Of a stretch of DNA of 64,000 nt, positions 19,379 to 46,240 are shown in pieces (within the stretch, counting starts at the first letter, position 1; every line of letters starts with the position of its first letter). Both the position numbers and the translations under genes were made by a program. The stretch is from Patescibacteria group bacterium (lineage in GTDB: Bacteria > Patescibacteriota > Saccharimonadia > UBA4664 > SCTI01), in assembly GCA_004297735.1 (NCBI GenBank), contig SCTI01000002.1, positions 350,180 through 414,179 on the forward strand. Reading direction: 5' to 3'. The notes under the pieces are model-generated. The model did not search any database. It was not told the origin of the DNA and saw nothing but the letters and a program-made list of their open reading frames with translations.

Positions 19379-22300
19379 TTGTTACATTTTGGAGATAATC
19401 GGTTGGACGATAATCGTTTGCAACAATCTGGATTGCAGGCTTCATCTCCGACACCAAACACCCCGCCTGGCGCGGGTCCTTTGGCGTACCAAAATGCGCC
19501 AGCAGCGCCGGCCGTTCCTGCTGCTGCACCAACATCAGCCCCTCGCCCCGCAGCCAAGACCAAGTTTGATCAGTACACCACCCCAAGCGTTAAAACCATT
19601 CCCGAATCAAAGCGCGCCGAACTAGAAAAGCTCAGTCGCCCCCGCCTTAATCGAATTAGATTAATCTTAACTATTCTGGTCATTATACTGGTGCTGGCAA
19701 TGGTCATACCGGTGACCTATATGGTGATTGATGCTATTCGGGCCGGACAGTCTAAGCAGTCGTCCCAAGATAAAAAGGGTGGGGAGTATGTGGTGACATC
19801 GATACCGCTAAGTGATTTGGTTAAAGCCGGGGATATTAGCATAAGCGATAGCCGACAGGTAAATATTAACGGTCAGCTGCGCGTTAATAACTCCTTAATC
19901 ATTGCCCCGAGCCAAGAGCCGGTTAACCCGGTTCAGGGACAACTCTATCTTAACCAGCAGACCAACCAGCTGTACTACTACAACGGTACCCAGTTTGTAG
20001 ATGTGGTGACCGGCGCCCAAATTGCTCAGTTAAATGCCGCAATTACGGCCAATAGCGCCCAAACCATTACCGTCGGAGCCGGTTTGCAACGAGTAGGGAA
20101 TGAGCTGATTAACACCGGCGTACTGGCTTTGCCACAAGCTTTGGACGTGGTCAGCTCCCCGACCTTTGGTGGCTTAAACCTCAGCTCGGCACTGGCGGTT
20201 GGTAACGGGGGAACCGGATCGGCCACTGCGGCGGGCGCACGGGTTAATCTGGGGGCGGCAGCGAGTGGCGCCAACACCGACATCACCAGCTTAGGAGCCC
20301 TAACTGCCGTCAGCCCTACGGCGGGTGTAACCTATAATTTCAACTCAGATCCGGCCGGCACCTACCAGTTCTGTACCACCGCTGGCAACTGCTCGGTCGT
20401 TAACGGTATAACCGGTACCGGCACCGCTGGTAGGCTGGCCAAGTTCTCCGGCTCTCAGGTTGTGGCCGACTCACTGCTCAGCGAAACCGGCACTACCGCG
20501 ACTGTAAACGGTGATCTGGCTGTAACCGGTAACATTTCTGGTAACGGCGCCAACATAACCAGCCTGAGCGCTAGCAATATCAGCACTGGAACGCTTAGCG
20601 ATAGCCGACTCAGCAGTAATGTGGCGCTACTCAATCGCAACAATCAGACCTTTACCGGCACCAACCATGTTTTACGCAATAGCAGCAACACCGGTAACGC
20701 TTTTCAGGTTCAAGATGCTAGCGGCAGCAACGTCTTTAATGTAGATACAATTACGCATGACATCACCACCGATTATGGCAACCTTTACATCAATGCTCTT
20801 GGTACCGTTAGCCCAACACTGTCCTCAAGTGGCAGTGGGGGAACGCTGACGGCTGCAACCTATTACTATCGGGTTTCGGCGTATAGCGCTGGCAGTCAGC
20901 TATCGGGCGCAATCGATACCACGCCCTCTTCGGCAACGACTACGGGGTCAACCAGCAGAAACATGATCAGCTGGTCGGCAGTTAGTGGAGCCGCCGGCTA
21001 CTATATTTATCGCTCAACCGATGGAGGTGCGACTTATCGTCGAATTGACGTTGGCAATGTGACCTCGGCAATCGATAACGGCACAACCTACACCTGGACC
21101 GGAGCGGATTACAGTGGTGACAAGTGGTTCAACTATACCGGCAACATCTACCTTGAGCATGGCGCAGGGGTTAACTTTAATTCTGGTAATGCCCAAATCG
21201 CTGAGGATTTGAGGGGAGAGCTAGAGATTGCCAACTATAATACAGGTGGCCTTTCGGGCGGGGTAGCGGTGTATTCAGATTATTTTGGCGTATACGACAC
21301 AACCGATTATCACACCAATCTGTATATGGATCGTGATGGTAAAACTACATTTTCAAATCGAGTAGATTCGACGGCTGGGTTCTTGGTTCAGGATGCGGCG
21401 GGTGGCAACCTGCTGGTGGTAGATACATTAAATCAGCAGTTGGCGGTGGGCCCGTCAGCAGTGCCAGGCAATAGTGTGCTGACGGTGGGTGGCGATACCA
21501 CGAGTTCTGCTGGCGGCATCACTTTGGGCACCGATACCAACCTTTACCGGAGTGCAGCCAATACTGTTAAAACGGATGGCAATTTACAGGCTACTGGATC
21601 GGCGGCTTTTGGAAGCACCGCAACAATATTAAATACTGGCGCGCAGCGGGCGACTGTAAATATCGATGAAAGTTATGCCGACACAACCGGCGTGTCGACT
21701 GTTAATGGGCTCAATTCCACTGTAACGGTAAATTCACCCTCCGCAAATAACACCGGCTTTCTTGGTCTTGATAGTGTGGTGTTGCTGGACGGAGATAGCA
21801 ATTATACTGGCTCGGCTATCGGGTCGTATAGCTATGTTCAGAAAACTGGGGCAGGCACGGCAAGCTGGCTTAACGGAGCCGAGCACGATGTTTATAACTA
21901 CAGCACCGGGACCGTAGCCAATGGGGTGGGTGTGTTTGGATACCTCAACCAGGCTAGTGATGCAGGCACCATTACTAACGGCAACGGTGTGTGGGGGCAG
22001 TCTGAGATAAGTGGGGCCGGTTCAATTCAGAACGCCAGTGGTTTAATTGGGGCGGTTTATAACTATGGAACCGGCACCATTACGAGTGGCTACGGGTTAC
22101 TGGTTAAGCCTGCCACTAATAGTGGTGGCGGCTCATTTGCCAATAATTATGGTGTTTACATTAATGACCAGTCAGCCGTTGGATCGACGAGTAGCTACAA
22201 CTTGTACTCGGCTGGGGCTAACGCTAAAAACTACCTTGCTGGTAAGTTACAGGTTGGCAGTAGCAATACAGCCTCTCGCGTTAACATTGGCACCGATACC

Positions 22301-22861
22301 GATACCACCTCGGCAGGAGGGATTACCTTTGGCACCGATACCAACCTGTATCGCGGGGCAGCCAATCAATTAAAGACCGACGATACGGTACAGATTAAGA
22401 CGGCCTCCGACTCAACCACCGCCTTCCAGGTTCAAAATGCTAGTGGCACCGCGCTGCTAACTGCCGATACTAGCGGAATGACCATAACGGTACAAGCCCT
22501 GACGGTAACCGCTAACTTAACGGTTAATGGGCATTTAATTACTGGCGGGAGCACGCCATCGGCGGCGGTTAATGCCAATGCTGGTGTTGGGGCAAGCTGT
22601 ACGGTAAGCGGCACCGATACCGCCGGTACGATTACGGTTACGACTGGGTCGAGCGGGGTGGTGGCCGGTACGCAGTGCGCTATTACTTTTGCCACCAACT
22701 TCGGCTCGGCTCCACGAGTGGTGCTAGGGGCTTCGAGCGCCGGCGCTGGTCCACTTGATCCTTATGTCGCGAGTAGCGCAACCAACACGTTTAGTATTGG
22801 AGTGGGTACCGCTGGCGCCACCGGCACGGCCTATAAGTTTGATTATGTGGCGGCCCAGTAA
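19379..22861 (+). CDS. giant (1160 aa) membrane-anchored surface fibre/adhesin-like protein with Gly/Thr/Ser/Asn-rich repeats
   Basis: Own promoter (tataat 19349-19354). Pro/Ala-rich N-terminus, one TM (LILTILVIILVLAMVIPV), then a long low-complexity beta-rich region with internal repeats at about 21.50-21.59 kb and 22.30-22.39 kb. Confidence 0.7.
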   Translation: MLHFGDNRLDDNRLQQSGLQASSPTPNTPPGAGPLAYQNAPAAPAVPAAAPTSAPRPAAKTKFDQYTTPSVKTIPESKRAELEKLSRPRLNRIRLILTILVIILVLAMVIPVTYMVIDAIRAGQSKQSSQDKKGGEYVVTSIPLSDLVKAGDISISDSRQVNINGQLRVNNSLIIAPSQEPVNPVQGQLYLNQQTNQLYYYNGTQFVDVVTGAQIAQLNAAITANSAQTITVGAGLQRVGNELINTGVLALPQALDVVSSPTFGGLNLSSALAVGNGGTGSATAAGARVNLGAAASGANTDITSLGALTAVSPTAGVTYNFNSDPAGTYQFCTTAGNCSVVNGITGTGTAGRLAKFSGSQVVADSLLSETGTTATVNGDLAVTGNISGNGANITSLSASNISTGTLSDSRLSSNVALLNRNNQTFTGTNHVLRNSSNTGNAFQVQDASGSNVFNVDTITHDITTDYGNLYINALGTVSPTLSSSGSGGTLTAATYYYRVSAYSAGSQLSGAIDTTPSSATTTGSTSRNMISWSAVSGAAGYYIYRSTDGGATYRRIDVGNVTSAIDNGTTYTWTGADYSGDKWFNYTGNIYLEHGAGVNFNSGNAQIAEDLRGELEIANYNTGGLSGGVAVYSDYFGVYDTTDYHTNLYMDRDGKTTFSNRVDSTAGFLVQDAAGGNLLVVDTLNQQLAVGPSAVPGNSVLTVGGDTTSSAGGITLGTDTNLYRSAANTVKTDGNLQATGSAAFGSTATILNTGAQRATVNIDESYADTTGVSTVNGLNSTVTVNSPSANNTGFLGLDSVVLLDGDSNYTGSAIGSYSYVQKTGAGTASWLNGAEHDVYNYSTGTVANGVGVFGYLNQASDAGTITNGNGVWGQSEISGAGSIQNASGLIGAVYNYGTGTITSGYGLLVKPATNSGGGSFANNYGVYINDQSAVGSTSSYNLYSAGANAKNYLAGKLQVGSSNTASRVNIGTDTDTTSAGGITFGTDTNLYRGAANQLKTDDTVQIKTASDSTTAFQVQNASGTALLTADTSGMTITVQALTVTANLTVNGHLITGGSTPSAAVNANAGVGASCTVSGTDTAGTITVTTGSSGVVAGTQCAITFATNFGSAPRVVLGASSAGAGPLDPYVASSATNTFSIGVGTAGATGTAYKFDYVAAQ

Positions 22862-22926
22862 GAACAAGCAGCCACTCAGACTCAAAATAGTTGACATGTT
22901 AATTATATCTCCATAGATTAGAGGGT

Positions 22927-23385
22927 ATGAACGGAAATAATCAGCAAGTAAATAAGTCGATGAGCTTTAAGCTACATCAGGTGGTTAAGCTGCTTCACCA
23001 TCAGGCTGATGTTATTTTGCAGCAGGAGCTGGGCATTAGCTTTAGCCAGTATCTGGTGCTTAAGGTGACTACGCAGATGGAGGGTCCGTCACAGCGTGAT
23101 GTCGCTGCTTGTCTCGACATTACTCCGGCGGCCATCAGTCGGCACATTGATGGTTTGTGTGAGCGCGGGCTGATGCACAAAGAGGCACAGCCAGATAATC
23201 GAAGGCAGCACAGCTTGCGGTTAACCAGGGTTGGCGTCAGCAAGGCCGAAAGTGCCCAGCGATTACTGAGCGAGCGATTCGACAACTTGATGGCTACCCA
23301 GCTAAATGAGACGGAGATAGCCCAGCTAGAGGTTTCTTTAGATAAGCTGATTGTTGCCCTGCAAAATGATAAATTTCTACACTAA
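22927..23385 (+). CDS. MarR-family transcriptional regulator
   Basis: Winged HTH region (SQRDVAACLDITPAAISRHIDGLCERGLM...LTRVG). Confidence 0.8.
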   Translation: MNGNNQQVNKSMSFKLHQVVKLLHHQADVILQQELGISFSQYLVLKVTTQMEGPSQRDVAACLDITPAAISRHIDGLCERGLMHKEAQPDNRRQHSLRLTRVGVSKAESAQRLLSERFDNLMATQLNETEIAQLEVSLDKLIVALQNDKFLH

Positions 23386-23397
23386 CGAGGAGAAAAC

Positions 23398-26300
23398 ATG
23401 AGTACCGAAAAACAGCCGCAATATAACTGGGTCGCCCGCTTGACCGGGTTCTTTTTAAGGAACACCCAGATTGCTATTGTGCTGTTTTTGGTAATTGTGG
23501 TGAGCGGGCTGGTTTCGCTATTAAGCTTGCAGCGAGAAGGATTTCCGCAGGTGCCGGTTAAGGTAGCGGTAATTCAGACCGTATATAAAGGGGCTGCCCC
23601 CGCCGAGATTGAGCGAAGTGTCACCAACCCAATCGAGACCGCGCTCAAGGGCAACAACAACATCAAGGAGCTTAGCTCACAGTCGCGTGATAGTGCCTCG
23701 GTAATTACGGCCACAATTGAGCCAAGTGCCGATTTGGACTCGGCGATACAAGAGATTAACGGTAAGGTAGCGGCGGTTCAACTACCGAACGATGCCGAAA
23801 AGCCAAGCGTGTTTCAGCCCGCTACCGGTGGAGCCGCTTTCACCTATGGGCTAACCGGCGGATCAACTCTCGACCTACTTAAGCAGGGCCGCATCTTTGA
23901 GCAAGAGATGAGCCAGGTAAAGGGGGTGAAAGAGGTTAAGGCCGATGTTAACGCTGAGGCTGAGGTTGAGGTAACATTCGATACCGTCAAGCTGGTGGCT
24001 AACGGTGTTGATATTAGTAAGATAAGCGACACAGTGGCGGCGTCTAATGTTAACATTCCGGCCGGACAGGTCACCGCCGGTTCGGTCAACTCAACCGTTA
24101 TTATGGCTGGACGGCTGGAGTCGCTGGAGCAACTACAGGAGGTTCGCTTGCCAACTGCTGGTGGTGGGGTGGTCCGCTTGGGCGACGTGGCAACGGTGAG
24201 TCAGCGGGTGAATAAGGACGATCAGTTGACTCGCTTTGGTTACCAAAAAGAGGGTAAGCCGGTTGGCGTTGAAGGTTTGACCTACAGCATTCAGCTGCGT
24301 GACGACGCCGATATCTTACAGGTTGATGGAGAGCTGCAAAAGGCGGTCGAACGGCTAAAGCAAGACAAGATCATTGCCGAGAACGTAGAGGTGGTACGGC
24401 TGTATGATCAGGCTGAATCAACGCGTCAGCAGATTCACGAGATCGTGGCCGGTGCCTTTGGTGAGCATTGGGAGAATATTGGCTGGTTTGGGCTGGCCGG
24501 ATTCTTGTTTGGTGGTATTTGGCTGCTAGCCATTGCCATGGCGGTGTTTGTAAACGTTCGAGCGGCTTTGGTGGCCGCCATATCGGTGCCATTAAGCTTT
24601 TTTGTGACGGTGACAACGCTGTATGTCGGCGGGGTGACGCTTAATACCCTAACGCTGTTTTCGATGATTCTGGTGCTTGGTTTGGTGGTTGATCCGGTGA
24701 TTGTGGTGCTCGAGGCGCTACAGCGCTATAAAGACCGTGGTTATCAAGGAATTGAGGCGGCCATGCGAGCGGTCGATAGTGTGGGTCTGGGCGTACTGAT
24801 GGCGGTATTAATTTCAACAATCGTGTTCATTCCATTTGGTATTGTATCGGGTGTGTTTGGCGAGATTATCCGCTTTATTCCGATCACGGTGATCCCGGCC
24901 TTAGTGGCATCCTTCTTTGTACCAATTCTGTTTTTAACCGCGATTGGCAATCGAGTACTTAAATCGCATCACAAAGACGGTGAGGATACCAGCGAAGAAG
25001 CTTCGCTGTGGCGAGTTAGTTTGTGGTTCCAGCGGACCAACCGCTCAATCTTAAAGCGTTGGCCGCTACAAGTGGCGATCATCGCCGTGGCGGCGGTTCT
25101 ACCAATCGCAATTGCCGGGTTCCTGTTTGGCACCGGCCGGATTGAAAGCGTTCAGTTTTCGAAGCCGGATGATACCGAAGCCTTAACCGTGACGGTCAGC
25201 TACCCTGCCGCCCGTAGCACGGCGTCGGTTGAGCAGCTGGCTCAAAAAACCGAGCAAGCATTGAGCGATCATGGAGAGATTCGGAGTTACCTGTACCAGC
25301 AGCAATCGCCGGGGAGCTTTACAATCCTGGCCAACCTAACTCCTCCTAGCGAGCGTGAGCGTAAGTCCACCGAGATTGTTGATGATATTCGCGGCGAGCT
25401 ACCCAGTGAGCCGGGACAGGTTTACGCTAGCGCCGAAACGCTGGGAAGCGGCACGCCGGTACCGGAGTTTCCGGTACAGCTTCAGGTTTACGATAACGAC
25501 CAAAAGAAGTTAAAAGACTTTTCGGTTGCTGCCGGCGAGTACTTGCGCGGGGTTGAGGGGGTTAAGCGAGTTTCGGATGGCTACACCGATGGCGATCCAG
25601 CTCAAATCACGGTTACTCCTAATATTGCTTCTTTGGCGGCGGTTGGTTTGACGCCCGCCAGCTTTGGCGGACAGATTGCCGGTGTGATTGGTGAGCAGGA
25701 TCTGACCAAACTCCAGCTTGATAGCGGCGAGGTAGCGGTTATGGGCCATTACAGTAACGGAGCCAAGCCGGCCACCGAAAGCGATATTGCCGCCTTGACC
25801 GTTAGTACGCCAAGTGGTCCGGTTGCGGTTGGCAGTGTGGCTACGGTTACGTCTGCACCAGGTATTGGCTCAATCAACCATTTTAACGGCAATCGTTTTG
25901 CTACGGTTAAGGCCCAGCTGAATGAAGGTGTTGATCAGTTTGCAGTACAGGAAAAGCTAAACACTTGGGCAAAAGATAATCGCGAACGCTTTGGCCTGCT
26001 CGAGGATGCATTTGAGTCAAAGGGCGAAGGTGACGAAATTGTTAAGTCGTTCCAAGAGCTGTTTGTGGCGTTGGGCGCGGCTATCTTGCTTACCTACGTG
26101 GTGCTGGCACTGTTCTTCCGCTCCTTCTTGCAGCCACTAATTATCACCTTTGCGGTGCCGCTCAGCTTTATTGGGGTGTTCCCGGCGCTATATTGGTTTG
26201 GCGGCGGTCAGTTTGGCTTTTTGGAGATCTTGGGCATGATCACCCTGGTCGGAATCGTGGAGAATGTTGGTATCTTTGTGATCGACTATGCCAACCGTCG

Positions 26301-26589
26301 GGTTAAGGAGGGGATGGATCATCGTGATGCAATCGCACTTGCCACCGCGGTCAGGTTCCGGCCAATCTTCCTGACCAAGGTGTGTGCGTTGGGTTCGTTG
26401 TTGCCCCTGGCGATCATTAGCCCATTTTGGCGCGGCTTGGCGGCGGTGATTGTGGCCGGTATCTTAACCTCCGGCATTACATCGCTGTTTACCACACCAA
26501 TTTTGTACCATTGGGTTGAAAGCTTTACCGCTTGGCGCCACCGTTTTGGTTCACGCATATCGGCTCGTTGGCGCCGTCGTAACGCCTAG
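23398..26589 (+). CDS. RND-superfamily efflux transporter permease (AcrB/MMPL-like)
   Basis: 1063 aa, two 6-TM bundles with large extracytoplasmic loops. aggag RBS. Directly after MarR. Confidence 0.8.
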   Translation: MSTEKQPQYNWVARLTGFFLRNTQIAIVLFLVIVVSGLVSLLSLQREGFPQVPVKVAVIQTVYKGAAPAEIERSVTNPIETALKGNNNIKELSSQSRDSASVITATIEPSADLDSAIQEINGKVAAVQLPNDAEKPSVFQPATGGAAFTYGLTGGSTLDLLKQGRIFEQEMSQVKGVKEVKADVNAEAEVEVTFDTVKLVANGVDISKISDTVAASNVNIPAGQVTAGSVNSTVIMAGRLESLEQLQEVRLPTAGGGVVRLGDVATVSQRVNKDDQLTRFGYQKEGKPVGVEGLTYSIQLRDDADILQVDGELQKAVERLKQDKIIAENVEVVRLYDQAESTRQQIHEIVAGAFGEHWENIGWFGLAGFLFGGIWLLAIAMAVFVNVRAALVAAISVPLSFFVTVTTLYVGGVTLNTLTLFSMILVLGLVVDPVIVVLEALQRYKDRGYQGIEAAMRAVDSVGLGVLMAVLISTIVFIPFGIVSGVFGEIIRFIPITVIPALVASFFVPILFLTAIGNRVLKSHHKDGEDTSEEASLWRVSLWFQRTNRSILKRWPLQVAIIAVAAVLPIAIAGFLFGTGRIESVQFSKPDDTEALTVTVSYPAARSTASVEQLAQKTEQALSDHGEIRSYLYQQQSPGSFTILANLTPPSERERKSTEIVDDIRGELPSEPGQVYASAETLGSGTPVPEFPVQLQVYDNDQKKLKDFSVAAGEYLRGVEGVKRVSDGYTDGDPAQITVTPNIASLAAVGLTPASFGGQIAGVIGEQDLTKLQLDSGEVAVMGHYSNGAKPATESDIAALTVSTPSGPVAVGSVATVTSAPGIGSINHFNGNRFATVKAQLNEGVDQFAVQEKLNTWAKDNRERFGLLEDAFESKGEGDEIVKSFQELFVALGAAILLTYVVLALFFRSFLQPLIITFAVPLSFIGVFPALYWFGGGQFGFLEILGMITLVGIVENVGIFVIDYANRRVKEGMDHRDAIALATAVRFRPIFLTKVCALGSLLPLAIISPFWRGLAAVIVAGILTSGITSLFTTPILYHWVESFTAWRHRFGSRISARWRRRNA

Positions 26590-26631
26590 GCTTACTTTAC
26601 AAAGACTTAGCCTGGCTTTAGGCTAATATCA

Positions 26632-27213
26632 ATGAAGGCACGTTACTTTTTTATAGCATCGGCAGTAGCCCTGGTGGTGGCGGTAAATTTTTTAATCCAG
26701 TATCAGCGTTCGATTAATGCTACCGCTCGTCAGGTTAAGGCCGATGATGTGGCCGCTGCGCCAACCGATACGTCAATGCTGGCGCTACAGAAGCGCGTGG
26801 AGTCGCATATGGGCACCTCGGTGGCGATTGTGCTGGAGGGCAGCTACCAGCGGGCGGTTGATGCTGCTCAGGCGGCAGCTAGCCCCCAGGCTAACGCCAG
26901 TGTGTATGCTCAGGCCCAGGCAGCCTGTGCTAAAAGCGGGGATTCGATAAAGCAGTCGAAGTGTGTCACCAATTACGTCAACAGTCATTCGGCGCCGGCG
27001 GCCAACCCTCAGCCAATGGTGATGCCGGATAAAGCGGCTTATACCAAGAGCTTTCATGGATCGAGCTGGACGATGGACGGAACCGGGATCGCGTTGCTAG
27101 TGGCAATGTTGTGTGCCGGTTGGGGACTGTTCTTGCTTGCTCAACCTAAGCGCCATACTCATCCTCAGCGGTATGAGCACCAGGTTTACCGGGGCCCTAA
27201 CCCAAGGTTGTAA
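26632..27213 (+). CDS. hypothetical protein with N- and C-terminal TM segments
   Basis: 193-aa ORF, no motif. Confidence 0.4.
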   Translation: MKARYFFIASAVALVVAVNFLIQYQRSINATARQVKADDVAAAPTDTSMLALQKRVESHMGTSVAIVLEGSYQRAVDAAQAAASPQANASVYAQAQAACAKSGDSIKQSKCVTNYVNSHSAPAANPQPMVMPDKAAYTKSFHGSSWTMDGTGIALLVAMLCAGWGLFLLAQPKRHTHPQRYEHQVYRGPNPRL

Positions 27214-27221
27214 GAGCGCTA

Positions 27222-27722
27222 TTACTTGGTGTAGTCGCGGATTGCCTTGGTGACCTTACCGTCTTCTTTGAGGTTTTCCCAGAACAGTACTTGATCACGA
27301 GAGATGTACATGGCATCTTCGGGGCCGTGCAGCTCATTACCAAGCTTGGCTAGTGATACCTGAGGCTGCTTGCTTTGGTCGTTTTTGGCGGCATCGGGTT
27401 GGACCGACTGCTGTACCTGCAAGTAGTAAATATCGCTCAGGCGGAGGTAGTTGTTGTTGACTTGCTTGAGTTTACCGAAGTAAACCTGTCCGTTAGCCAA
27501 GAAAACGGCTTGGTACTGCTTGCTGTTAACCTGAACGTTGTTGCTCAGGCTCCCGGCCAGGCGGACGCCCAAATAGGTAATCAGGCTGATCGCGGCCACA
27601 ATTAAAACAACGATTAAGGTGTTTTCGAGAAAGCTGCGGCGAACTCGGCCGCCGTTTGAGCTGCGGACATGAGTCGTTGCTTTGGTATTATCTAGATTAT
27701 TACTGTTTCGACGTAGTTCCAT
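27222..27722 (-). CDS. hypothetical membrane-anchored protein
   Basis: 166 aa, single TM after a basic N-terminus. Confidence 0.45.
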   Translation of the reverse strand: MELRRNSNNLDNTKATTHVRSSNGGRVRRSFLENTLIVVLIVAAISLITYLGVRLAGSLSNNVQVNSKQYQAVFLANGQVYFGKLKQVNNNYLRLSDIYYLQVQQSVQPDAAKNDQSKQPQVSLAKLGNELHGPEDAMYISRDQVLFWENLKEDGKVTKAIRDYTK

Positions 27723-27909
27723 ACCACTCCACTCTTTAGCATTAGCACTATATCAAAGTATAGTAAAACAACCGATTTGATGCAAATTAGCCCTTAACGC
27801 TTAAGGTTAATTTTTCTCGGAGAAAACCGGCTTTTTCAGGTGAGTTTTTATTGACAAAGGAGCAACCATTAGCTTAATCTGAAAACCAGGTTAATTAAGT
27901 GAGGAAAAC

Positions 27910-28107
27910 ATGGCTTACAACCATACGAATTCAAAGGGTCAGACCTATTATCTACACCAGCGCGACGTAACCCTAAAGGGTGGCCGCCAGCAACGTATTT
28001 ACTTCTTTGCCCGCGAGGTCAAGGATGGAGCGATTGACGCATTGCCAGAAGGTTACGTGGTAGTTGAAAACCCACGCACCGGTCTGCCGATCCTCAAGAA
28101 GGGCTAA
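27910..28107 (+). CDS. small hypothetical protein (65 aa)
   Basis: aggaaaa RBS, ttgaca -35 at 27853. Followed by terminator. Confidence 0.4.
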   Translation: MAYNHTNSKGQTYYLHQRDVTLKGGRQQRIYFFAREVKDGAIDALPEGYVVVENPRTGLPILKKG

Positions 28108-28128
28108 ACCTTTTAGTCCAACTACCAA

Positions 28129-28156
28129 GACCGCCCAAACGGGCGGTTTTTGGTTT
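28129..28156 (+). terminator. rho-independent terminator
   Basis: ccgccc-aaac-gggcgg stem followed by tttttggttt. Confidence 0.5.
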
Positions 28157-28265
28157 GGGCTAGCTATTATTTGAACGTTACTCAAAAAGCACTAGACAAC
28201 CGTGGGCAACCGGAGCATAATCGCAACCGGTTTAATAACTGTACCTACCATGCCTAGGAGGGAAG

Positions 28266-29303
28266 ATGCGCCAGCTGTTTGTAGCTGTGGTTTTGTTGTG
28301 CGCGTTGGCCTTCCCGGCAAGCGTACAGGCAGCTCCATACTTCGATTTCGGCGTCCATGATGATGGCGCCGTTGTGTTTAATCGCGACCATCAGCGCCAG
28401 CCGGTGCTGAGGCGGGCGCGTGACATCGGCGCCACCTGGCTCCGCACCATCATCTACCGTGATCGCGTTCAAGGCGGTAACTTTCGGGTTTACCGGCGTT
28501 CGATTCGGGATGTCTACCGCCATCATTTTCACGTTCAAGCGGTAATTGAATGTAGCGGTCAGGCCTGGACACCGGATAGCTTTGCGGCCTACGTCAAACG
28601 GGTGGTGCGGCAGCTCCAACCATTAGTGCGACGCTGGAGTATCTGTAACGAGCCCAATCAACCTGGCTGGCTAACCGCTATACCGGGCTACGATCTACCG
28701 ACCACCTACCGCTGGCTGTACCTTGCCGGCTACAGCGCGGTCAAACAGGTTCAGCCTCAGGCGGCGGTGCTGTTTGGCGAGCTTAGTTCCAACTACTACC
28801 CGCTAGAGTTTATGCGGAAGGTGTTTTGCGATCAGGGCGATTTGGATGGTAATTGCACTCAGCTTAAGACCAGCTGTGTGGCTTACCATCCTTACCAGCA
28901 GGAAAGCCCGCTATCACCCAGTAATGTGCCGTTTACGGTTGGCATTGGCTCGCTTAACTTACTGGTTGATGATCTCGATCAGCTCCATGCAAAAAACCTG
29001 TTAACCACCGCCAATGGCGTTGATCGTCCGCCACTGTGCCTAACCGAGTTCGGCTACCAGAGTCGGGCTCGCGGTATACTGAGGGTCCGTAACGTACCGG
29101 ACGAGGTGCGCAAGCAGCGTTGGCGTGAGGCTTTTAACTTGGTTTGCAAGTCGCCGATCATCAAGCAGATCTTTCTGTATCAGATGCAGTCAGAAGCAAG
29201 GGGCCGGTGGGATACCAGCATCATGAGCCGGAGCGGTCAGCCGGATAAGACCTACTTTGGCATTCGCAGCTGGCGTTATGCTCACCCTGAGTGCATGCGT
29301 TAG
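28266..29303 (+). CDS. secreted glycoside hydrolase, clan GH-A (TIM-barrel)-like
   Basis: Signal peptide (AFPASVQA-AP). ICNEPN (acid/base NEP motif) and LTEFGY (nucleophile) spaced as in GH5/GH39-type enzymes. Confidence 0.55.
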   Translation: MRQLFVAVVLLCALAFPASVQAAPYFDFGVHDDGAVVFNRDHQRQPVLRRARDIGATWLRTIIYRDRVQGGNFRVYRRSIRDVYRHHFHVQAVIECSGQAWTPDSFAAYVKRVVRQLQPLVRRWSICNEPNQPGWLTAIPGYDLPTTYRWLYLAGYSAVKQVQPQAAVLFGELSSNYYPLEFMRKVFCDQGDLDGNCTQLKTSCVAYHPYQQESPLSPSNVPFTVGIGSLNLLVDDLDQLHAKNLLTTANGVDRPPLCLTEFGYQSRARGILRVRNVPDEVRKQRWREAFNLVCKSPIIKQIFLYQMQSEARGRWDTSIMSRSGQPDKTYFGIRSWRYAHPECMR

Positions 29304-29364
29304 CTTACGGCCACCCCATCTGGGGTGGCCGTTTAGATTAGGGGTCTTTACAATTAAAAAATAG

Positions 29365-31524
29365 TTGTTACGCTTAGGCCATAGCTACTTAAACCGATGC
29401 GGGATGGCATCAGACATGAAGCACTCAGCAAAGCTGATCGCAAAAAAGAGGCTAAATCGAAAACGGATCTTAATATTTACCGCTCTAGTCGCGTTGGCTG
29501 GAGTCGTGGCGATTATCACTTCCTTTGCCGCAGTTATTACCACTATTCAAGCCGAAAACATCAACTTTAGCCGTAAGGCCATTGGCTACGATCCCGCTAA
29601 AAAGGCCATTGCCTCGCTTTACTGGAACGCAAGTGGTTCTACTCAGGTAACCTTACCGACCAATACCACCAACCTGACCATTGTGGCTAAGGGCACTAGG
29701 TGTAACGGTTCCCCAATTATGACCGTTCAAATCGATGGCGAGCAGGTTGCTAGCATGCCGGTATCGGTTAACGCTTGGCGCAACTACTCGATCCCGCTCA
29801 ACCTTCAACCGGGCACCTATATTGTGTCGGTTAGCTTTAATAATGATTATGTCAGAGGGGGTACCTCTCCCTGTGATCGCAACCTGTTCCTTGATACGCT
29901 TAACTTTACCGGTAACGATCCGACCCCCAAGGTAACCACACCGCTCCAGGGGGAGAGTCTGACGTATGCACCCGGCAAGGCCAGTATTGGCACCGGCCCG
30001 ACGAGAGAAGAAAAAGCTTTATCAATGTGGTCAAATGGTATGGCTCAGGGGCAGCTTAATCTAGCCGGCTCATCTAACCGTCTAACCGCCTACATTAGAG
30101 GTGACCAGTGCGATGGTGCGCCATTTATGACGCTTTACGTTGACGGCAAGCAAGTCGTGGCTAAGCACGTCAGGTTTAATAACTGGGGACAGATATCGGC
30201 ACCGGTTGCGGTTGGCTCCGGCCAGCACACCGTAGCGGTTGGTTTCACCAATGATTATGGCCGCCTTAACAGCACAGGGTCATTTATTTGTGACCGCAAT
30301 CTACATGTCGATAAGTTGGTGTTTGAAGGCCCGATGCCGGTGCAGCCACCGGTGCAGGTACTGCCGACGGCGCCAACTGGACTCAAGGTTCTAAAATATG
30401 AGAATGGTAGCGTTACGCTACAGGCAACGGTTGATGCTAACACCGCTACAGCTGGCGTGGGATACACGGTCAACGGTCAGGCCGGGCCACCGGTTGCCGA
30501 TGCGGTGCGAATGGGTAGTGTAGTAACGATGACCATACCCAACATTCCACCTGGCGCAGCCATGGTTATGAAGATGGCCGGTAAGAACGGTACCGGGACC
30601 GGACCGCAAAGTGCTCCGCTCAACTTTACCGCCCCAGTGGCCGCACCAAACTCGCCCCCAACCGCCTTTACCGGCAGCGTGATCGGCATGCATGGTGGTG
30701 CTCGTGACATTGATTACCGGGCAACCCGAAGTCTTAAGCCAAAGCTGGTTCGCGTAGGTGGCTTGTCGGCGACGATGACTCGATCTCAAATCCAGGCAAT
30801 TGCGAGCGAGTACGCCAAGACTAGCACTCGTATTATTGCCCTGGTTGACTTTAATGAGGCGGCACCGAGTGAGGCCGAAAGCCGCAACATTGGAACCTGG
30901 GCTACCATACCGGGACTCGAGGCAATTGAGTTTGGCAACGAACCCTGGCTGCAAAATGAAAGTTGGGATTACGCTCAGTACGCCCGCAGCTATAAAGCGG
31001 CTTACGATGCGGTTAAAGCGGCCAATCCAAGTATGGTGCTGATTGCCCAGGGTGATTCAGCCAACCGTGGTCACCGTCCGGGCCTGCGGGTGATGCAAGA
31101 GATTAAAAACCTCGGTATTAAACCTAAGGCAATTCAAATCCACCCATATGGCCCCGACTACCTCAACCGACTGGGTGATGCGCGACGTGACCTAAAGGAC
31201 GTTGGCTGGTCCACCGGAGTTGATATTTGGGTGACCGAGGTTGGAGTTTCGACCGATAACGGCCGCACCGTTTACCAGGGTGGTACGCCTAACAACTATG
31301 GCTGGAATGCAGCCATGACCTATGCTGAGGCCGGTAAAACGATTGACCAGGTTACTTCTGACCTGCTGGCACAGGGCGTAACGCGCATCATTGTTTACAT
31401 GGGCACCGACTATCGTGCTCCAGGCACCTCGAACGAGCGTGAGTACTACTTTGGCTTAACCAAGACTGACGGTGGCGATAAGGGCGATTTAAGTACTGTG
31501 ATGCGCCGGCTGTTTAACCGCTAA
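29365..31524 (+). CDS. multidomain membrane-anchored glycoside hydrolase: 2x CBM-like beta-sandwich repeats + FN3-like + clan GH-A catalytic domain
   Basis: Likely start at MKHSAKL (29416) with signal anchor. Two ~130-aa repeats ending ..NDY..G.S.CDRNL.VD.L.F. C-terminal EFGNEPW and IWVTEVG motifs. Confidence 0.55.
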   Translation: MLRLGHSYLNRCGMASDMKHSAKLIAKKRLNRKRILIFTALVALAGVVAIITSFAAVITTIQAENINFSRKAIGYDPAKKAIASLYWNASGSTQVTLPTNTTNLTIVAKGTRCNGSPIMTVQIDGEQVASMPVSVNAWRNYSIPLNLQPGTYIVSVSFNNDYVRGGTSPCDRNLFLDTLNFTGNDPTPKVTTPLQGESLTYAPGKASIGTGPTREEKALSMWSNGMAQGQLNLAGSSNRLTAYIRGDQCDGAPFMTLYVDGKQVVAKHVRFNNWGQISAPVAVGSGQHTVAVGFTNDYGRLNSTGSFICDRNLHVDKLVFEGPMPVQPPVQVLPTAPTGLKVLKYENGSVTLQATVDANTATAGVGYTVNGQAGPPVADAVRMGSVVTMTIPNIPPGAAMVMKMAGKNGTGTGPQSAPLNFTAPVAAPNSPPTAFTGSVIGMHGGARDIDYRATRSLKPKLVRVGGLSATMTRSQIQAIASEYAKTSTRIIALVDFNEAAPSEAESRNIGTWATIPGLEAIEFGNEPWLQNESWDYAQYARSYKAAYDAVKAANPSMVLIAQGDSANRGHRPGLRVMQEIKNLGIKPKAIQIHPYGPDYLNRLGDARRDLKDVGWSTGVDIWVTEVGVSTDNGRTVYQGGTPNNYGWNAAMTYAEAGKTIDQVTSDLLAQGVTRIIVYMGTDYRAPGTSNEREYYFGLTKTDGGDKGDLSTVMRRLFNR

Positions 31525-31593
31525 TAAAAGCAAAACGCCCCACCGACCCAAGGCCGGTAAGGGCGCTTGCGCGGTAGGGCGCGGTGAGCGGGG

Positions 31594-31761
31594 CTAGTAG
31601 CCGGGCTCGAACTCGAAACCTTCGAGGTTTTGGGCTGCCTCGCTGACGCGGGCATCATCCTGATCGCGACAGGCCTTGGAGCAGGGCTGGCCGTCGCCGC
31701 TCGAGCGCAGGCAGGTCGGGCAGATCTCCTGGTCGACTGTGAACTCGTCTTCGTCCATCAT
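31594..31761 (-). CDS. small Cys-rich protein (55 aa; CPTC...C..C), high-GC islet
   Basis: aggagg RBS, ATGA overlap with the upstream gene. MMDEDEFTVDQEICPTCLRSSGDGQPCSKACRDQDD... Below the ORF-track cutoff. Confidence 0.3.
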   Translation of the reverse strand: MMDEDEFTVDQEICPTCLRSSGDGQPCSKACRDQDDARVSEAAQNLEGFEFEPGY

Positions 31762-32021
31762 CGCCTCCTAAAGCTGTCGGCTGTGAAAAAGAACCTGATG
31801 AGCTTGCCTTCCGTCACCCAGAACCCTCGGCGCCCGAAGCTTCGAAGAACGAAGTGGAGCGGAACCCAGATCGGCGCCAGTATGATGGCAAGGGCTAGGG
31901 CGAGGATGAACATGAAGGTGCCAACGCACAGCATGACCGCTGCGATCACGGCAGCAAGCATTCTCCGGAAGGGGCTTGTAACCTCAGTCCCCTTGCGCTC
32001 GACGCTCAACTTGGTTTTCAT
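31758..32021 (-). CDS. small membrane protein (87 aa), high-GC islet
   Basis: Two TM helices, GC3-rich codons. Overlapping plus-strand 143-aa ORF judged spurious. Confidence 0.35.
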   Translation of the reverse strand: MKTKLSVERKGTEVTSPFRRMLAAVIAAVMLCVGTFMFILALALAIILAPIWVPLHFVLRSFGRRGFWVTEGKLIRFFFTADSFRRR

Positions 32022-32133
32022 ATTACTCCCAGGTACTCTTCGGTTGAAGAAATGTCGCTAGTCGTCATATGGACAACCCACCTTCAAGTGAAGGAATTTA
32101 GCTTTATAATAACATAAGTTCTCTTAAAATCAA

Positions 32134-32209
32134 TGGTGGGCCCGGCTGGACTTGAACCAGCGACCAATCGGTTATGAGCCGACTGCTCTAACCACTGAGC
32201 TACGGGCCC
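32134..32209 (-). tRNA. tRNA with CAU anticodon, probably tRNA-Ile2 (lysidine)
   Basis: Cloverleaf GGGCCCGTAGCTCAGTGGTTAGAGCAGTCGGCTCATAACCGATTGGTCGCTGGTTCAAGTCCAGCCGGGCCCACCA. From memory it closely resembles enterobacterial ileX. tilS is encoded 750 bp away. Confidence 0.7.
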
Positions 32210-32300
32210 GTGATAATACTCCATGATTGTACCAGGTTGCTAACCGCTTGCAATCACCCGCTACCTGTTAATGCGTCGTCATTTGTATTACGCTTAAGGT

Positions 32301-32684
32301 ATGCAACGCGTTCGAGACCAGCTTCGTAAACTACACGTAGGCACCATTATTGGCGTGATAGTGGCGCTGTATATTGGTGTATATCTGGTTCAAACTATTC
32401 AAAAGAATTATGAGCTGCAAAAGCAAATTGATGGCTTACAGCAGGATGTGGCCGGCCTCGAGGTTGAGCAGGATCAGTTAAAGTATAAGATTCAGTACTA
32501 CCAAACCGAGGCTTTTAAAGAAAAAGAGGCGAGGGAGAAGCTGGGCCTGCAGCAGCCCGGGGAGAGCGTACTGATTCTGCCAAAAGACAATGCTCCAGCC
32601 GAAGATGAACAGCAGCAAAAGCCGGCAGCAACCCAAAAATCAAACCTACAACAATGGATTGATTTCCTGATGGGCCGTTCTTGA
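32301..32684 (+). CDS. septum formation initiator family protein (FtsB/DivIC-like)
   Basis: N-terminal TM then coiled coil (LQKQIDGLQQDVAGLEVEQDQLKYKIQYYQT). Confidence 0.55.
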   Translation: MQRVRDQLRKLHVGTIIGVIVALYIGVYLVQTIQKNYELQKQIDGLQQDVAGLEVEQDQLKYKIQYYQTEAFKEKEAREKLGLQQPGESVLILPKDNAPAEDEQQQKPAATQKSNLQQWIDFLMGRS

Positions 32685-32720
32685 CTGTAGGGGTAAAAGT
32701 TGGTAATATGCTGGGTACGT

Positions 32721-32797
<77 letters not shown>

Positions 32798-32866
32798 AGA
32801 AATTATGGACGGACTCGATCAGCGATTGCTGGTCGTTTTGTTTGTCGGTACAATTGTTTGGTACAT

Positions 32867-32941
<75 letters not shown>

Positions 32942-32966
32942 GGAATTATTTTGTTATAGTGTCAGC

Positions 32967-33890
32967 ATGAGTTTAACCGAGAAAATTATCTGGCCAGAGC
33001 CGGGGCATTACCTTGTGGCGGTGTCCGGAGGCGTTGATTCAATCAGTCTTTTGTATGCTCTAGCAAAGAAAGGCGACTATAAACTCGATGTGGCATTTAT
33101 TGATCACGGTTGGCGCGAGGTTGAGGGGGAACGCGAGCTGGTTCATGAACTGGCGGGTGCGCTCGGAGTGGAGGTTCATGAGCGGAGCTTAGACCTCAAA
33201 GGCGATGGAGAAGAGGAGGCCAGAGTAGCTCGCTATGGTGCGCTCAAGGAGATTCGAACCCAGGTTGGCGCCCGAGCGTCTGTTACGGCGCACCATCTAG
33301 ACGATCGGATCGAGACGGTGCTAATGCAGGTAATGCGAGGATCTGGTCGGCAGGGGCTTAGCGTACTACGTTCGACCGATGAAATTATCCGCCCGTTATT
33401 GGGTGTTAAAAAGCCAGAGATCGTAGAGTATGCTCAGAAACACGATTTAAAGTGGGTTGAGGATCCAACAAATAAAGATCTTAAGTATCGCCGGAACTAT
33501 GTTCGGCATGAGCTGATTCCGCAGTTGCAGCAGGAGGATCCGGATTTTGAAGATTGGATCATGAGCTTGATCCAGGAGGCGGAAGGCTTGAATCATGAGG
33601 TCGATCTTGGTTTGGCCAAGTTGATTCATGAGCTGACGCTGTCTTCTGGTGATGGGGCTCATGAACTCAGCCGTGAAGCCTTGCGCCGTTTGCCGGTCGA
33701 GGTGTTGCAGGAAGTTTTGGTTTCGGTGTTACGCAAACTCGATCCTTTGGTGCAGCTTGATCGGCGTACGGTTGAGTCGTTAACGATTGACATCAAAACC
33801 GGGCACATTTATCGACCGCGACAGCTGACAAAGCAGTTGTTTGTGGATGCTCAGCGTGATAAAGTAACAGTTGCATTTAAGGCTCACTAA
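32967..33890 (+). CDS. tilS: tRNA(Ile)-lysidine synthetase TilS (short form)
   Basis: PP-loop VAVSGGVDS and the expected downstream layout. Confidence 0.85.
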   Translation: MSLTEKIIWPEPGHYLVAVSGGVDSISLLYALAKKGDYKLDVAFIDHGWREVEGERELVHELAGALGVEVHERSLDLKGDGEEEARVARYGALKEIRTQVGARASVTAHHLDDRIETVLMQVMRGSGRQGLSVLRSTDEIIRPLLGVKKPEIVEYAQKHDLKWVEDPTNKDLKYRRNYVRHELIPQLQQEDPDFEDWIMSLIQEAEGLNHEVDLGLAKLIHELTLSSGDGAHELSREALRRLPVEVLQEVLVSVLRKLDPLVQLDRRTVESLTIDIKTGHIYRPRQLTKQLFVDAQRDKVTVAFKAH

Positions 33891-37617: not shown

Positions 37618-38421
37618 ATGTCGACAAGCCTGTATGATATCACCATTGGTCAGCAGACCGAGCTTACCCGCATTTTAGCGGGTGCCGGGCTCGATGCTGA
37701 CATGGTTAAGCGGATTATCCGCAACCCTGATCTCGCTAAGAAGATGATCGGCGAGATCCGACAGACGATTCCGACAAACACCGACCTTTTCGCTTCGGCC
37801 GAGGACATCCTCACTAGGTTTCGCGAGCGGGCAGAGTTGCGGGGGTGGCCAATCACCGCCAAGCCAGGCGGACACCTAGCGCGCAACATGCCGAGGTTCC
37901 CGACCGACAGCCTCGCCGCGCTCTGTCTCAAGATCTGGCTCGGTTCGGCCGAGAAGACCGCCGAGGAGCTGTGGGCGTGGGTCGTCGATTCGCACCCCAA
38001 CTCGTGGCAGTATGGGGGTCTGAAGTTTGACCCCGAGTACTTCGAGCTCCTCGATCCCTCCCGCTACGGCGACGAGCCCAGTGTGGAGTGGGAGGTCATC
38101 GACCTCGGCGCTTACTGGGAGCCGGAGAGTGGCCGGACGGTCCTTGAGGTCCGTGAGCAGGCCGCTGCAAGGAGCGACGTTCTGGCCGATTTTGAAGTCC
38201 TGACGGTCGCGGCCCTACACCCGAACTATATCCAGGCCCAAGACGGGGAGAGCGTCCCTTACCTGGATGTGGCAGGTGTCAAAACCACGCTTCCCGGGGG
38301 TGAGCCCTGCGCACCGTACATCAGCTGGAACCAGTATCGCCGCGGGGTTGGGTTGCTCATGTCCACGGTGGACTACCGCAACGATGAGTGGGCCGCTCCA
38401 GTCATCCTGCAGGGGTCGTAA
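37618..38421 (+). CDS. hypothetical protein, high-GC / GC3-rich codon usage (probable horizontally acquired gene)
   Basis: 267-aa ORF with markedly higher GC than its flanks (ctc/gac/gag/gcc codons). No motif. Confidence 0.5.
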   Translation: MSTSLYDITIGQQTELTRILAGAGLDADMVKRIIRNPDLAKKMIGEIRQTIPTNTDLFASAEDILTRFRERAELRGWPITAKPGGHLARNMPRFPTDSLAALCLKIWLGSAEKTAEELWAWVVDSHPNSWQYGGLKFDPEYFELLDPSRYGDEPSVEWEVIDLGAYWEPESGRTVLEVREQAAARSDVLADFEVLTVAALHPNYIQAQDGESVPYLDVAGVKTTLPGGEPCAPYISWNQYRRGVGLLMSTVDYRNDEWAAPVILQGS

Positions 38422-45136: not shown

Positions 45137-46240
45137 GTGGCTAAACGTGATTACTACGACATTTTAGGAGTTTCGAAGTCGGCCAGTGCCGATGAGATTA
45201 AGCGTGCCTACCGTAAGCTCGCCATGAAGCATCACCCCGATAAGCATGGTGGCGACGACAAGGAGTTCAAAGAGGTTGCCGAGGCTTATGAGGTCTTAAA
45301 AGATGACCAAAAGCGAGCTCAGTATGATCAGTTTGGCCACAATGGCCCATTTGGCGGTGGAAGAGCTGGTGGCCCGGGCGCCGGTGGCTTTAATGGTCAG
45401 CAGTTTGACTTTAGTCAGTTTGGCGGCGGCTTTGGCGACATTTTCGACATGTTTATGGGCGGCCAACAGGGCGGTCGCAGTCAGGGCCCGCGTCGTGGGG
45501 CAGATTTAGAGACCGCGGTGACAGTTGAGTTTAAGGACGCTATTTTTGGCACCGAAGAAACGCTCAACTTTAACGCCGAGGACCAGTGTGACCGTTGTCG
45601 CGGTAAGGGCGCCGAGCCGGGCAGCAAGATCAAGACCTGCGATACCTGTAAGGGCCAGGGCCAGGTAACCCGGATGCAGCAGACGATTTTGGGTTCAATT
45701 CGTCAAAACATGGTTTGCCCAACCTGCCACGGTGAAGGCGAGATTCCGGAGCAAAAATGTTCGCACTGTCACGGTAAGGGAACGGTTAAAAAGGCGCGCA
45801 AGGTTAAGGTGAAGATCCCGGCTGGAGTTGATAACGGTACCACTATTCGCCTGGCTGAACAGGGTGGCGCCGACCGCAAGGGGCCCAATGGCGATCTTTA
45901 CGTGCATATTCGCGTAAAGCCGCATAAGGAGCTGGTGCGCGAAGGCCAAAATATTACCTCAACCACGACCATTCCCATGACCCTAGCGACTCTAGGTGGC
46001 GAGATTGAGGTGTTAACCGTTGATGGCGATATTACGCTCAAGATTCCGGCGGGTACTCAGGGCGGCAAAAAGTTTAAGCTCAGCGAGCACGGCGTGCCTA
46101 GCCTTAGCCGCAGCGGGCGCCGCGGTGATCATATTGTTACCGTTACGGTTGAGACTCCAACCAAGTTGAGCGCCAAGCAAAAGCAGCTGCTGGAAGAGTT
46201 TGAGGAAGCCAGCGGCAAAAAGCCTTTCTGGAAAAAATAG
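45137..46240 (+). CDS. dnaJ: co-chaperone DnaJ
   Basis: J-domain with HPD; four CxxCxGxG zinc-finger repeats. GTG start. Confidence 0.9.

Follow-up and report, generated by a model that had tools for sequence, protein, structure and literature searches.

The window analysed here is a stretch of 64,000 nucleotides from a Patescibacteria group bacterium placed in Saccharimonadia (assembly GCA_004297735.1, contig SCTI01000002.1, positions 350,180 to 414,179). Near its middle, beside a tRNA gene with the anticodon CAU, a preliminary description of this DNA had pointed to a GC-rich cassette of about 500 bp, read as two small minus-strand genes. The unit that we find at this place consists, in order, of a promoter-like site, a GGGAG sequence, an open reading frame (ORF) for an 87-amino-acid (aa) membrane protein, an AGGAGG sequence, an ATGATGA overlap, an ORF for a 55-aa acidic protein with four cysteines, and a terminator (Table 1). 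The earlier reading of two ATGA-coupled ORFs, the second behind AGGAGG, is confirmed, though translation more probably begins at the second ATG. The first gene ends in a TGA that overlaps both ATGs of the second, and the spacing from AGGAGG, 2 nt to the first ATG and 5 nt to the second (31758), makes a 54-aa form the likelier product. The Logan assembly of SRR8426595, made independently, matches positions 21758-32191 of the window with 100% identity and ends within the tRNA, and gene calling on that contig lists both small ORFs, the second one as the 54-aa form.

On its right the unit adjoins the tRNA, which lies on the same strand, as had been claimed. Since this tRNA is 89.5-90.7% identical over its full length to Escherichia coli genes annotated as tRNA-Ile, it is tRNA-Ile2, and the earlier identification stands. 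The 5' leader between the tRNA and the 87-aa gene (32022-32133) has a GC content of 0.37. On the left, a terminator scan places a strong hairpin at 31562..31538 on the minus strand, followed by UUUUGCUUUUAUU. The RNA of 81 nt around it (31520-31600) folds at -35.9 kcal/mol (z -2.7), and the 41-nt element that contains it occurs once within the window. Transcription would start at the unit's own promoter-like site, at the tRNA promoter with read-through, or at both, and would end at this terminator.

Table 1. Features between tRNA-Ile2 and the terminator element, with their coordinates in the window
Feature	Position	Strand	Basis
Promoter-like site 5' of tRNA-Ile2, TTGCAA-16-TACAAT with TG	32226..32253	-	Consensus match only
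tRNA-Ile2, anticodon CAU, TilS substrate; right border of the slot	32134..32209	-	ARAGORN; Rfam tRNA 75.4 bits
Promoter-like site right after the tRNA 3' end, TTGATT-16-TATTAT with TG	32106..32133	-	Consensus match only
Shine-Dalgarno GGGAG, 4 nt ahead of the ATG of the 87-aa gene	32026..32030	-	Sequence reading
Gene for the 87-aa membrane micro-protein, member of phrog_22794	31758..32021	-	ORF list, PHROG profile
Shine-Dalgarno AGGAGG of the second gene	31764..31769	-	Sequence reading
Gene for the 55-aa (probably 54-aa) acidic Cys4 protein	31594..31761	-	ORF list
41-nt element with intrinsic terminator; left border of the slot	31528..31568	-	Terminator scan, conservation in L003
143-aa plus-strand ORF, judged a spurious shadow frame	31630..32061	+	Shared third codon positions

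Gene content of the slot in related genomes

Relatives were picked by their TilS homologues. A TilS scan of genome contigs found no close relative, and the closest usable locus was L003 (JGI contig Ga0098074_1000067), whose TilS is 77% identical. To the left of the unit the two loci are syntenic over MarR, AcrB and four further genes (window 22886-29336, L003 119-6593), and to the right over the tRNA, DivIC, two tRNAs, TilS, FtsH, MurJ and LepA, with window positions 32134-32950, from the tRNA onward, aligning to L003 8493-9304 at 83%. The terminator element is shared as well: window 31528-31568 and L003 6604-6644 are identical at 40 of 41 positions, whereas the coding flanks are just 73-83% identical. 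With two genomes compared, this identity could reflect either constraint on a terminator of the tRNA-Ile2 unit or recent recombination. In both loci the element is the first minus-strand terminator past the tRNA, and the promoter-like hexamers of the tRNA are found at the equivalent place in L003 (8609..8582). Since these hexamers and the terminator are both conserved, the variable DNA between them appears to lie inside the transcription unit of the tRNA.

What lies between these borders differs. The interval from terminator to tRNA measures 565 nt and holds two micro-genes in the window; in L003 it measures 1848 nt and holds three unrelated minus-strand genes (272, 146/122 and 143 aa) that match no family. 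In two loci that are more distant, L006 (TilS 49% identical) and L019 (TilS 41% identical), a co-oriented gene lies downstream of the tRNA, of 132 aa in the former and 151/228 aa in the latter, and in L019 there is an analogous promoter-like site immediately past the tRNA. tRNA-Ile2 is kept in all three loci, and in none of them, whether the closest or the two more distant ones, does the syntenic slot contain the 87-aa gene. The comparison of presence and absence among relatives is thus positive, with L003 carrying different genes in exactly this slot. To call the cassette "inserted", as the preliminary description did, is right in that the slot content is strain-specific, but it is too simple, as the left end of the cassette, comprising the terminator and possibly the end of the 55-aa gene, is common to L003. 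A scan of metagenomes with the terminator core returned the contig of L003 itself and two chance matches inside a CoA-transferase-like gene.

A second difference between the window and L003 lies at the same locus. On the plus strand of the window, positions 29365-31524 encode a 719-aa protein with two CBM60 modules and host-like composition, which is absent from L003, where the conserved terminator element comes immediately after a 348-aa gene. A paralogous relation of the 719-aa protein to the neighbouring 345-aa gene was considered and discarded (no blastp match at E < 1e-3).

tRNA genes are well-known targets of genomic islands (PMC2704930), and orphan genes are commonly seen next to tRNAs (PMC2704930, PMC1285063). 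The cassette resembles such tRNA-associated islets and islands in adjoining a tRNA 3' end, in its atypical composition, in its orphan genes and in its replacement in relatives (PMC2704930, PMC1285063). It would thus be conceivable that a tyrosine or serine integrase put a phage or island into the 3' end of tRNA-Ile2, and that the module is this element or its remnant; its position, its atypical GC content, a gene of a phage family (see below) and the known role of tRNA genes as island targets (PMC2704930) all fit. However, a search of the 64-kb window that allowed up to 3 mismatches in 25 nt found no repeat of the tRNA 3' end that could serve as an attachment (att) site; the one further 16-nt match to the tRNA end, at 45814, is no more than chance would give. 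Across the genes between 26.6 and 33.9 kb, Pfam showed no integrase or recombinase domain, and the module is only 565 nt long. Its far border is a terminator conserved with a relative rather than an att half-site, and the variable part lies inside an apparent tRNA transcription unit, which sets it apart from the known islets. We therefore regard a tRNA-targeted integrative element as improbable.

Composition and coding signal

The claim that the cassette is richer in GC and in GC at third codon positions (GC3) than its flanks is borne out by proper calculation. The whole window has a GC content of 0.517 (standard deviation 0.035, windows of 500 nt), against 0.60 for positions 31550-32060 and 0.611 for positions 31569-32021, and the cassette forms the second-highest GC peak of the window, the top peak lying at 37.6-38.0 kb. 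GC3 is 0.739 in the 87-aa ORF and 0.821 in the 55-aa ORF, compared with 0.569 ± 0.061 in 57 long ORFs of the window. For the pair together it is 0.775, a value that not one of 5000 contiguous 143-codon chunks taken from host genes attained, and the synonymous codon use of the pair falls at the 1.7th percentile of fit to the host. The slot content is thus not only strain-specific but also compositionally foreign (GC 0.61, GC3 0.78). Both ORFs show a coding-type bias of GC among codon positions (chi-square p = 2.7e-4 for the 87-aa ORF and 1.6e-4 for the 55-aa ORF).

The highest GC peak of the window marks a second GC-rich stretch. Positions 37618-38421 on the plus strand hold a 267-aa ORF (GC 0.616, GC3 0.765) between MurJ and LepA, its end overlapping the start of the listed LepA ORF. 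As MurJ and LepA are directly adjacent in L003, L004, L006 and L018, this too is a strain-specific insertion. The 267-aa ORF has no match in Pfam, PHROG, PADLOC, NCBIfam or IMG/VR.

The 87-aa protein and a mycobacteriophage family

The 87-aa protein is annotated by NCBI as hypothetical protein EPO04_03670 of "Patescibacteria group bacterium". It contains 14 K+R and 4 D+E residues, and a hydrophobic span of ~39-45 residues lies between two basic tails, of which the C-terminal one carries the motif APIWVPLHFVLRSFGRRGF. The protein is alone in its cluster in a collection of 5.8e9 proteins, and its single-sequence AlphaFold model, one long helix, is uninformative. A PHROG scan matched it to phrog_22794 at E 5.7e-6 over residues 42-71 (E 1.1e-6 with the C-terminal half alone), and gp84 of Mycobacterium phage Llij matches the same profile positions at E 2.3e-6. 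The initial lead to gp84 was a weak tblastn match (E 0.9); tblastn of both small proteins against plasmids and phages gave nothing significant, and significance came through profile searches only. Further family members were read from phage records, namely Wildcat gp139, homologues in Cosmo, MaryV, EniyanLRS and Azrael100, and the protein WPH57672 of WXIN.

In an alignment of five sequences, eight columns are invariant (P50, W52, P54, L59, G63, R64, G66 and F67). These residues form the pattern APxWxPxDxxLRxxGRRGF at the point where the last transmembrane helix exits, and beyond it follows a short tail of alternating aromatic residues ending in F-[RK]-[RK]. With the WXIN protein the 87-aa protein aligns over residues 20-86. 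As a control for transmembrane bias, a profile built from the Llij, WXIN and Wildcat proteins only was run against 2500 six-frame ORF segments of the window and related loci: it gave the 87-aa ORF 41.3 bits (E 1.5e-11) and the runner-up 13.5 bits. In a collection of 50,697 phage records the family was found in mycobacteriophages only, in three lineages, and motif patterns run on IMG/VR recovered Llij and Wildcat only. On these profile matches we place the 87-aa protein in phrog_22794, a family found here only in GC-rich mycobacteriophages.

The likeness to this family goes beyond the motif at the membrane exit. All members are small (49-87 aa), have one or two N-terminal transmembrane helices and share the invariant P-x-W-x-P…L…G-R-x-G-F with the F-[RK]-[RK] ending, at pairwise identities of 32-44%. 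Their composition is similar too: the phage members have a GC content of 0.56-0.63 and a GC3 of 0.72-0.76, the window gene 0.57 and 0.74. The window member differs in lying in a bacterial chromosome with no phage genes nearby (the neighbours are the CBM60 protein, tRNAs, DivIC, TilS and FtsH), in an extra basic N-tail of 19 residues, and in its translational coupling to an acidic Cys4 protein, a neighbour that no phage member has.

In Llij itself (49.5-49.8 kb; L021/L026), gp84 is annotated from a GTG that removes the transmembrane segment, while the frame runs on upstream (…LAASLFVGVWF…), and the gene directly follows the transposase gene gp83. The start of gp84 may thus be mis-annotated or disrupted.

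The profile also bears on the choice of strand. The 143-aa plus-strand ORF is the longest ORF of the region, a weak hairpin with a T-rich stretch follows it (32081-32094), and a host-trained codon model gives it about the same log-likelihood as the minus-strand ORFs. It begins, however, with TTG and has no Shine-Dalgarno sequence, its third codon positions are common with those of the 87-aa ORF, as is typical of a shadow frame, and it has no family match. The match of the phage-family profile to the minus frame only settles, as far as sequence can, that this is the true reading, in agreement with the preliminary description, which had taken the plus-strand ORF to be spurious. A structured non-coding RNA, the other candidate for the true feature, finds no more favour: over the entire unit the minus-strand RNA is no more stably folded than shuffled sequence (z -1.36), and an Rfam scan returned tRNAs and nothing else. 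That either of these is the true feature seems to us highly improbable.

Composition and homology together also bear on the idea that the two genes are native and vertically inherited, their GC richness and orphan status resulting from the fast evolution of small proteins and from local composition. The neighbourhood is indeed somewhat GC-richer in both genomes (in L003, GC3 is 0.70 in the 348-aa gene and 0.715 in the 143-aa gene, the last of the slot), and the terminator and a C-terminal motif are common to L003. The 87-aa gene is missing from the syntenic slots, however, the only relatives that could be detected for it are phage genes with a similar GC and GC3, and none of the 5000 host chunks attains the GC3 of the pair. 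A native origin can thus be given only a small probability.

The acidic four-cysteine protein

The second protein carries 14 D+E and 4 K+R residues and has its cysteines in the pattern C14-x2-C17-x9-C27-x3-C31. The preliminary description had called it zinc-ribbon-like, of which the four cysteines and the acidic character hold; the second pair is CxxxC rather than the canonical CxxC, no zinc-ribbon profile matches, and no zinc-binding fold was matched among Pfam or PDB sequences. No PHROG matches the protein either, and its single-sequence AlphaFold model shows two helices at low confidence (pLDDT 66).

The one probable relative lies in the slot of L003. A stretch of 22 residues (CPTC…G.PCSK) is shared with the C-terminus of the 143-aa gene, with 9 of 22 residues identical and a pairwise E of 2e-4, and this was the best tblastn match over all fetched loci (E 0.012). 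In each genome the CPxC…PCSK stretch is read in frame and lies shortly before the shared terminator, and conserved residues within it show three synonymous differences. We consider homology of the two proteins probable but weak. They are alike in their position 5' of the terminator, in the pattern CP[ST]C-x8/9-PCSK and in the context of the TAG stop (GGGGCTA), and they differ in that the L003 protein has an N-terminal domain of 110 residues absent from the 55-aa protein and a histidine in place of the fourth cysteine. This suggests that the distal end of the slot, that is, the gene tail and terminator, is older than the proximal part.

Other candidate relatives were set aside. Llij gp92 (phrog_1694), encoded in the same phage as gp84, resembles the 55-aa protein in a stretch IC.TC.R…PC.KACR; a profile made from six proteins of the gp92 family scores the 55-aa protein at 5.8 bits, below several decoys, and we attribute the likeness to chance. 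A tblastn match in an Agrobacterium plasmid (E 0.7) is the N-terminus of an unrelated 246-aa membrane protein without CxxC. Two long proteins returned by a search of 1.84e9 representatives lack the matched stretch, are repetitive and were judged spurious. Scans of IMG/VR with both small proteins, the 272-aa and 143-aa slot proteins of L003 and the 267-aa high-GC ORF found nothing.

The shared tail raises the question of decay. The cassette might be a relic, either leftover foreign DNA or the deletion remnant of a three-gene operon like that of L003, its ORFs functionless and intact by chance or because the event was recent. Both genes lack close relatives, their coding scores under the host codon model are low, and the 55-aa ORF, sharing just a C-terminal motif and the terminator with the L003 gene, looks like a shortened derivative. 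Yet both ORFs have kept strong Shine-Dalgarno sequences, the coupling overlap and codon-position periodicity of GC, there are zero frameshifts or internal stops, and the 87-aa ORF retains 8 of 8 invariant family residues over its full length. A relic is therefore rather unlikely.

The tRNA cluster beyond the slot

Two more CAU tRNAs lie at 32721 and 32867, followed by DivIC, TilS and FtsH. By inspection they look like initiator and elongator tRNA-Met. Within 32134-33890, three CAU tRNAs are thus clustered with tilS, whose product modifies tRNA-Ile2. The order tRNA-Ile2 (minus strand), DivIC, CAU tRNAs, TilS, FtsH is kept in L003 and L006 and rearranged in L019.

Gene content also varies at a second place, between the CAU tRNAs and tilS. 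This interval is empty in the window and holds a HEPN_Cthe2314 gene in L003 (9319-10047), a 601-aa gene in L008 (2-1807), a giant Kelch-repeat gene of 3102 aa in L016 (1-5843) and L017, and three small ORFs in L006 (9006-9964). Related assemblies often break at or beside the CAU tRNAs (contig ends of L001, L004, L005, L009, L011 and L020), which limits the comparison of the slot. These breaks probably reflect shared tRNA k-mers, not real structural variation.

Discussion

Our preferred reading, to which we would give a probability of about 0.55, is that the cassette is a true minus-strand micro-operon of two genes that fills a hypervariable slot in a Saccharimonadia-like chromosome, bordered by the 3' end of tRNA-Ile2 on one side and a conserved terminator on the other, that its first gene is of phage type, that it was acquired horizontally by recombination, and that the pair serves as a membrane-level accessory function. 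The suggestion of the preliminary description that this is a small acquired module is upheld by the foreign composition and the strain-specific content beside tRNA-Ile2. To this we add the sharp definition of the slot, bordered by a conserved terminator, and the assignment of one gene to a rare family of mycobacteriophages.

According to this reading, the module, or at least its first gene, would derive, through horizontal transfer, from an actinobacteriophage-like or actinobacterial gene pool, by recombination rather than through a tRNA-targeting integrase. Saccharibacteria live as epibionts or parasites on Actinobacteria, among them Gordonia, which produces mycolic acids (PMC11880426), and some Saccharibacteria phages are targeted by spacers of Actinobacteria (PMC10746230). 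Given this way of life, an actinophage-like source of the gene is ecologically plausible.

As to what the pair does, one may only guess. The 87-aa protein might insert as a helical hairpin with both termini inside the cell, which would put the juxtamembrane motif PxWxP…LRxxGRRGF and a short, beta-hairpin-like tail at the cytoplasmic face of the membrane. The acidic Cys4 protein (net charge ~-10) might then bind or neutralise the basic tail (net ~+6), possibly by means of a small metal-binding knuckle. By analogy with the small membrane genes of phage early regions, the pair could act in exclusion, in interference or as a toxin with its antidote, rather than in core metabolism.

In some respects the pair does resemble toxin-antitoxin and toxin-immunity modules, having two small co-directional genes with a stop/start overlap in an accessory location, one product basic and membrane-embedded and the other strongly acidic. 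It differs from them in that no DNA-binding domain was detected and neither protein has a toxin-antitoxin or defence match in Pfam, NCBIfam or PADLOC at E < 0.01. The pair, moreover, recurs in no other genome that we found, the 55-aa gene having been found nowhere else. The earlier idea of a toxin/immunity module thus draws no support from homology, and the two genes do not travel together elsewhere.

Several observations weigh against the preferred reading. The 55-aa protein is un-annotated by NCBI, and homologues of it are absent among 5.8e9 clustered proteins and 1.84e9 representatives. The partner gene is not conserved, as the phage homologues of the 87-aa gene have unrelated neighbours, and no member of phrog_22794 has an assigned function. 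Identity to the phage proteins is only 32-44%, and the sampled phages are therefore not the donors. The phage collection is strongly biased to phages of Mycobacterium smegmatis, and cellular members of the family may have been missed by the word-index search, which by our estimate needs ~45 bits for a database of this size. The host codon model, as noted, scores the minus-strand ORFs about like the plus-strand one. Finally, because the 143-aa gene of L003 is also GC3-rich and shares both terminator and motif, part of the module may predate the separation of the lineages of the window and of L003.

A bolder extension may be considered, according to which the stretch from tRNA-Ile2 to the terminator is a dedicated "expression slot" that captures small foreign genes without an integrase and expresses them, in part from phages of the host Actinobacteria, and the pair is a new membrane-level device of interference or exclusion. 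We think this quite unlikely. If true, it would reveal a path by which genes pass to the epibiont from viruses associated with its hosts.

The weight of the finding is modest, in that orphan genes beside tRNAs are common and no long-standing question is opened. If the preferred reading is true, the locus would nevertheless provide a clean, small example of how an epibiont with a reduced genome acquires accessory micro-genes: a tRNA-adjacent slot with conserved borders and lineage-specific content, one gene of which can be traced to a family met here only in phages of mycolic-acid Actinobacteria, as would suit the known life of Saccharibacteria on Actinobacteria. It would also give this uncharacterised family of phage micro-proteins its first cellular context.

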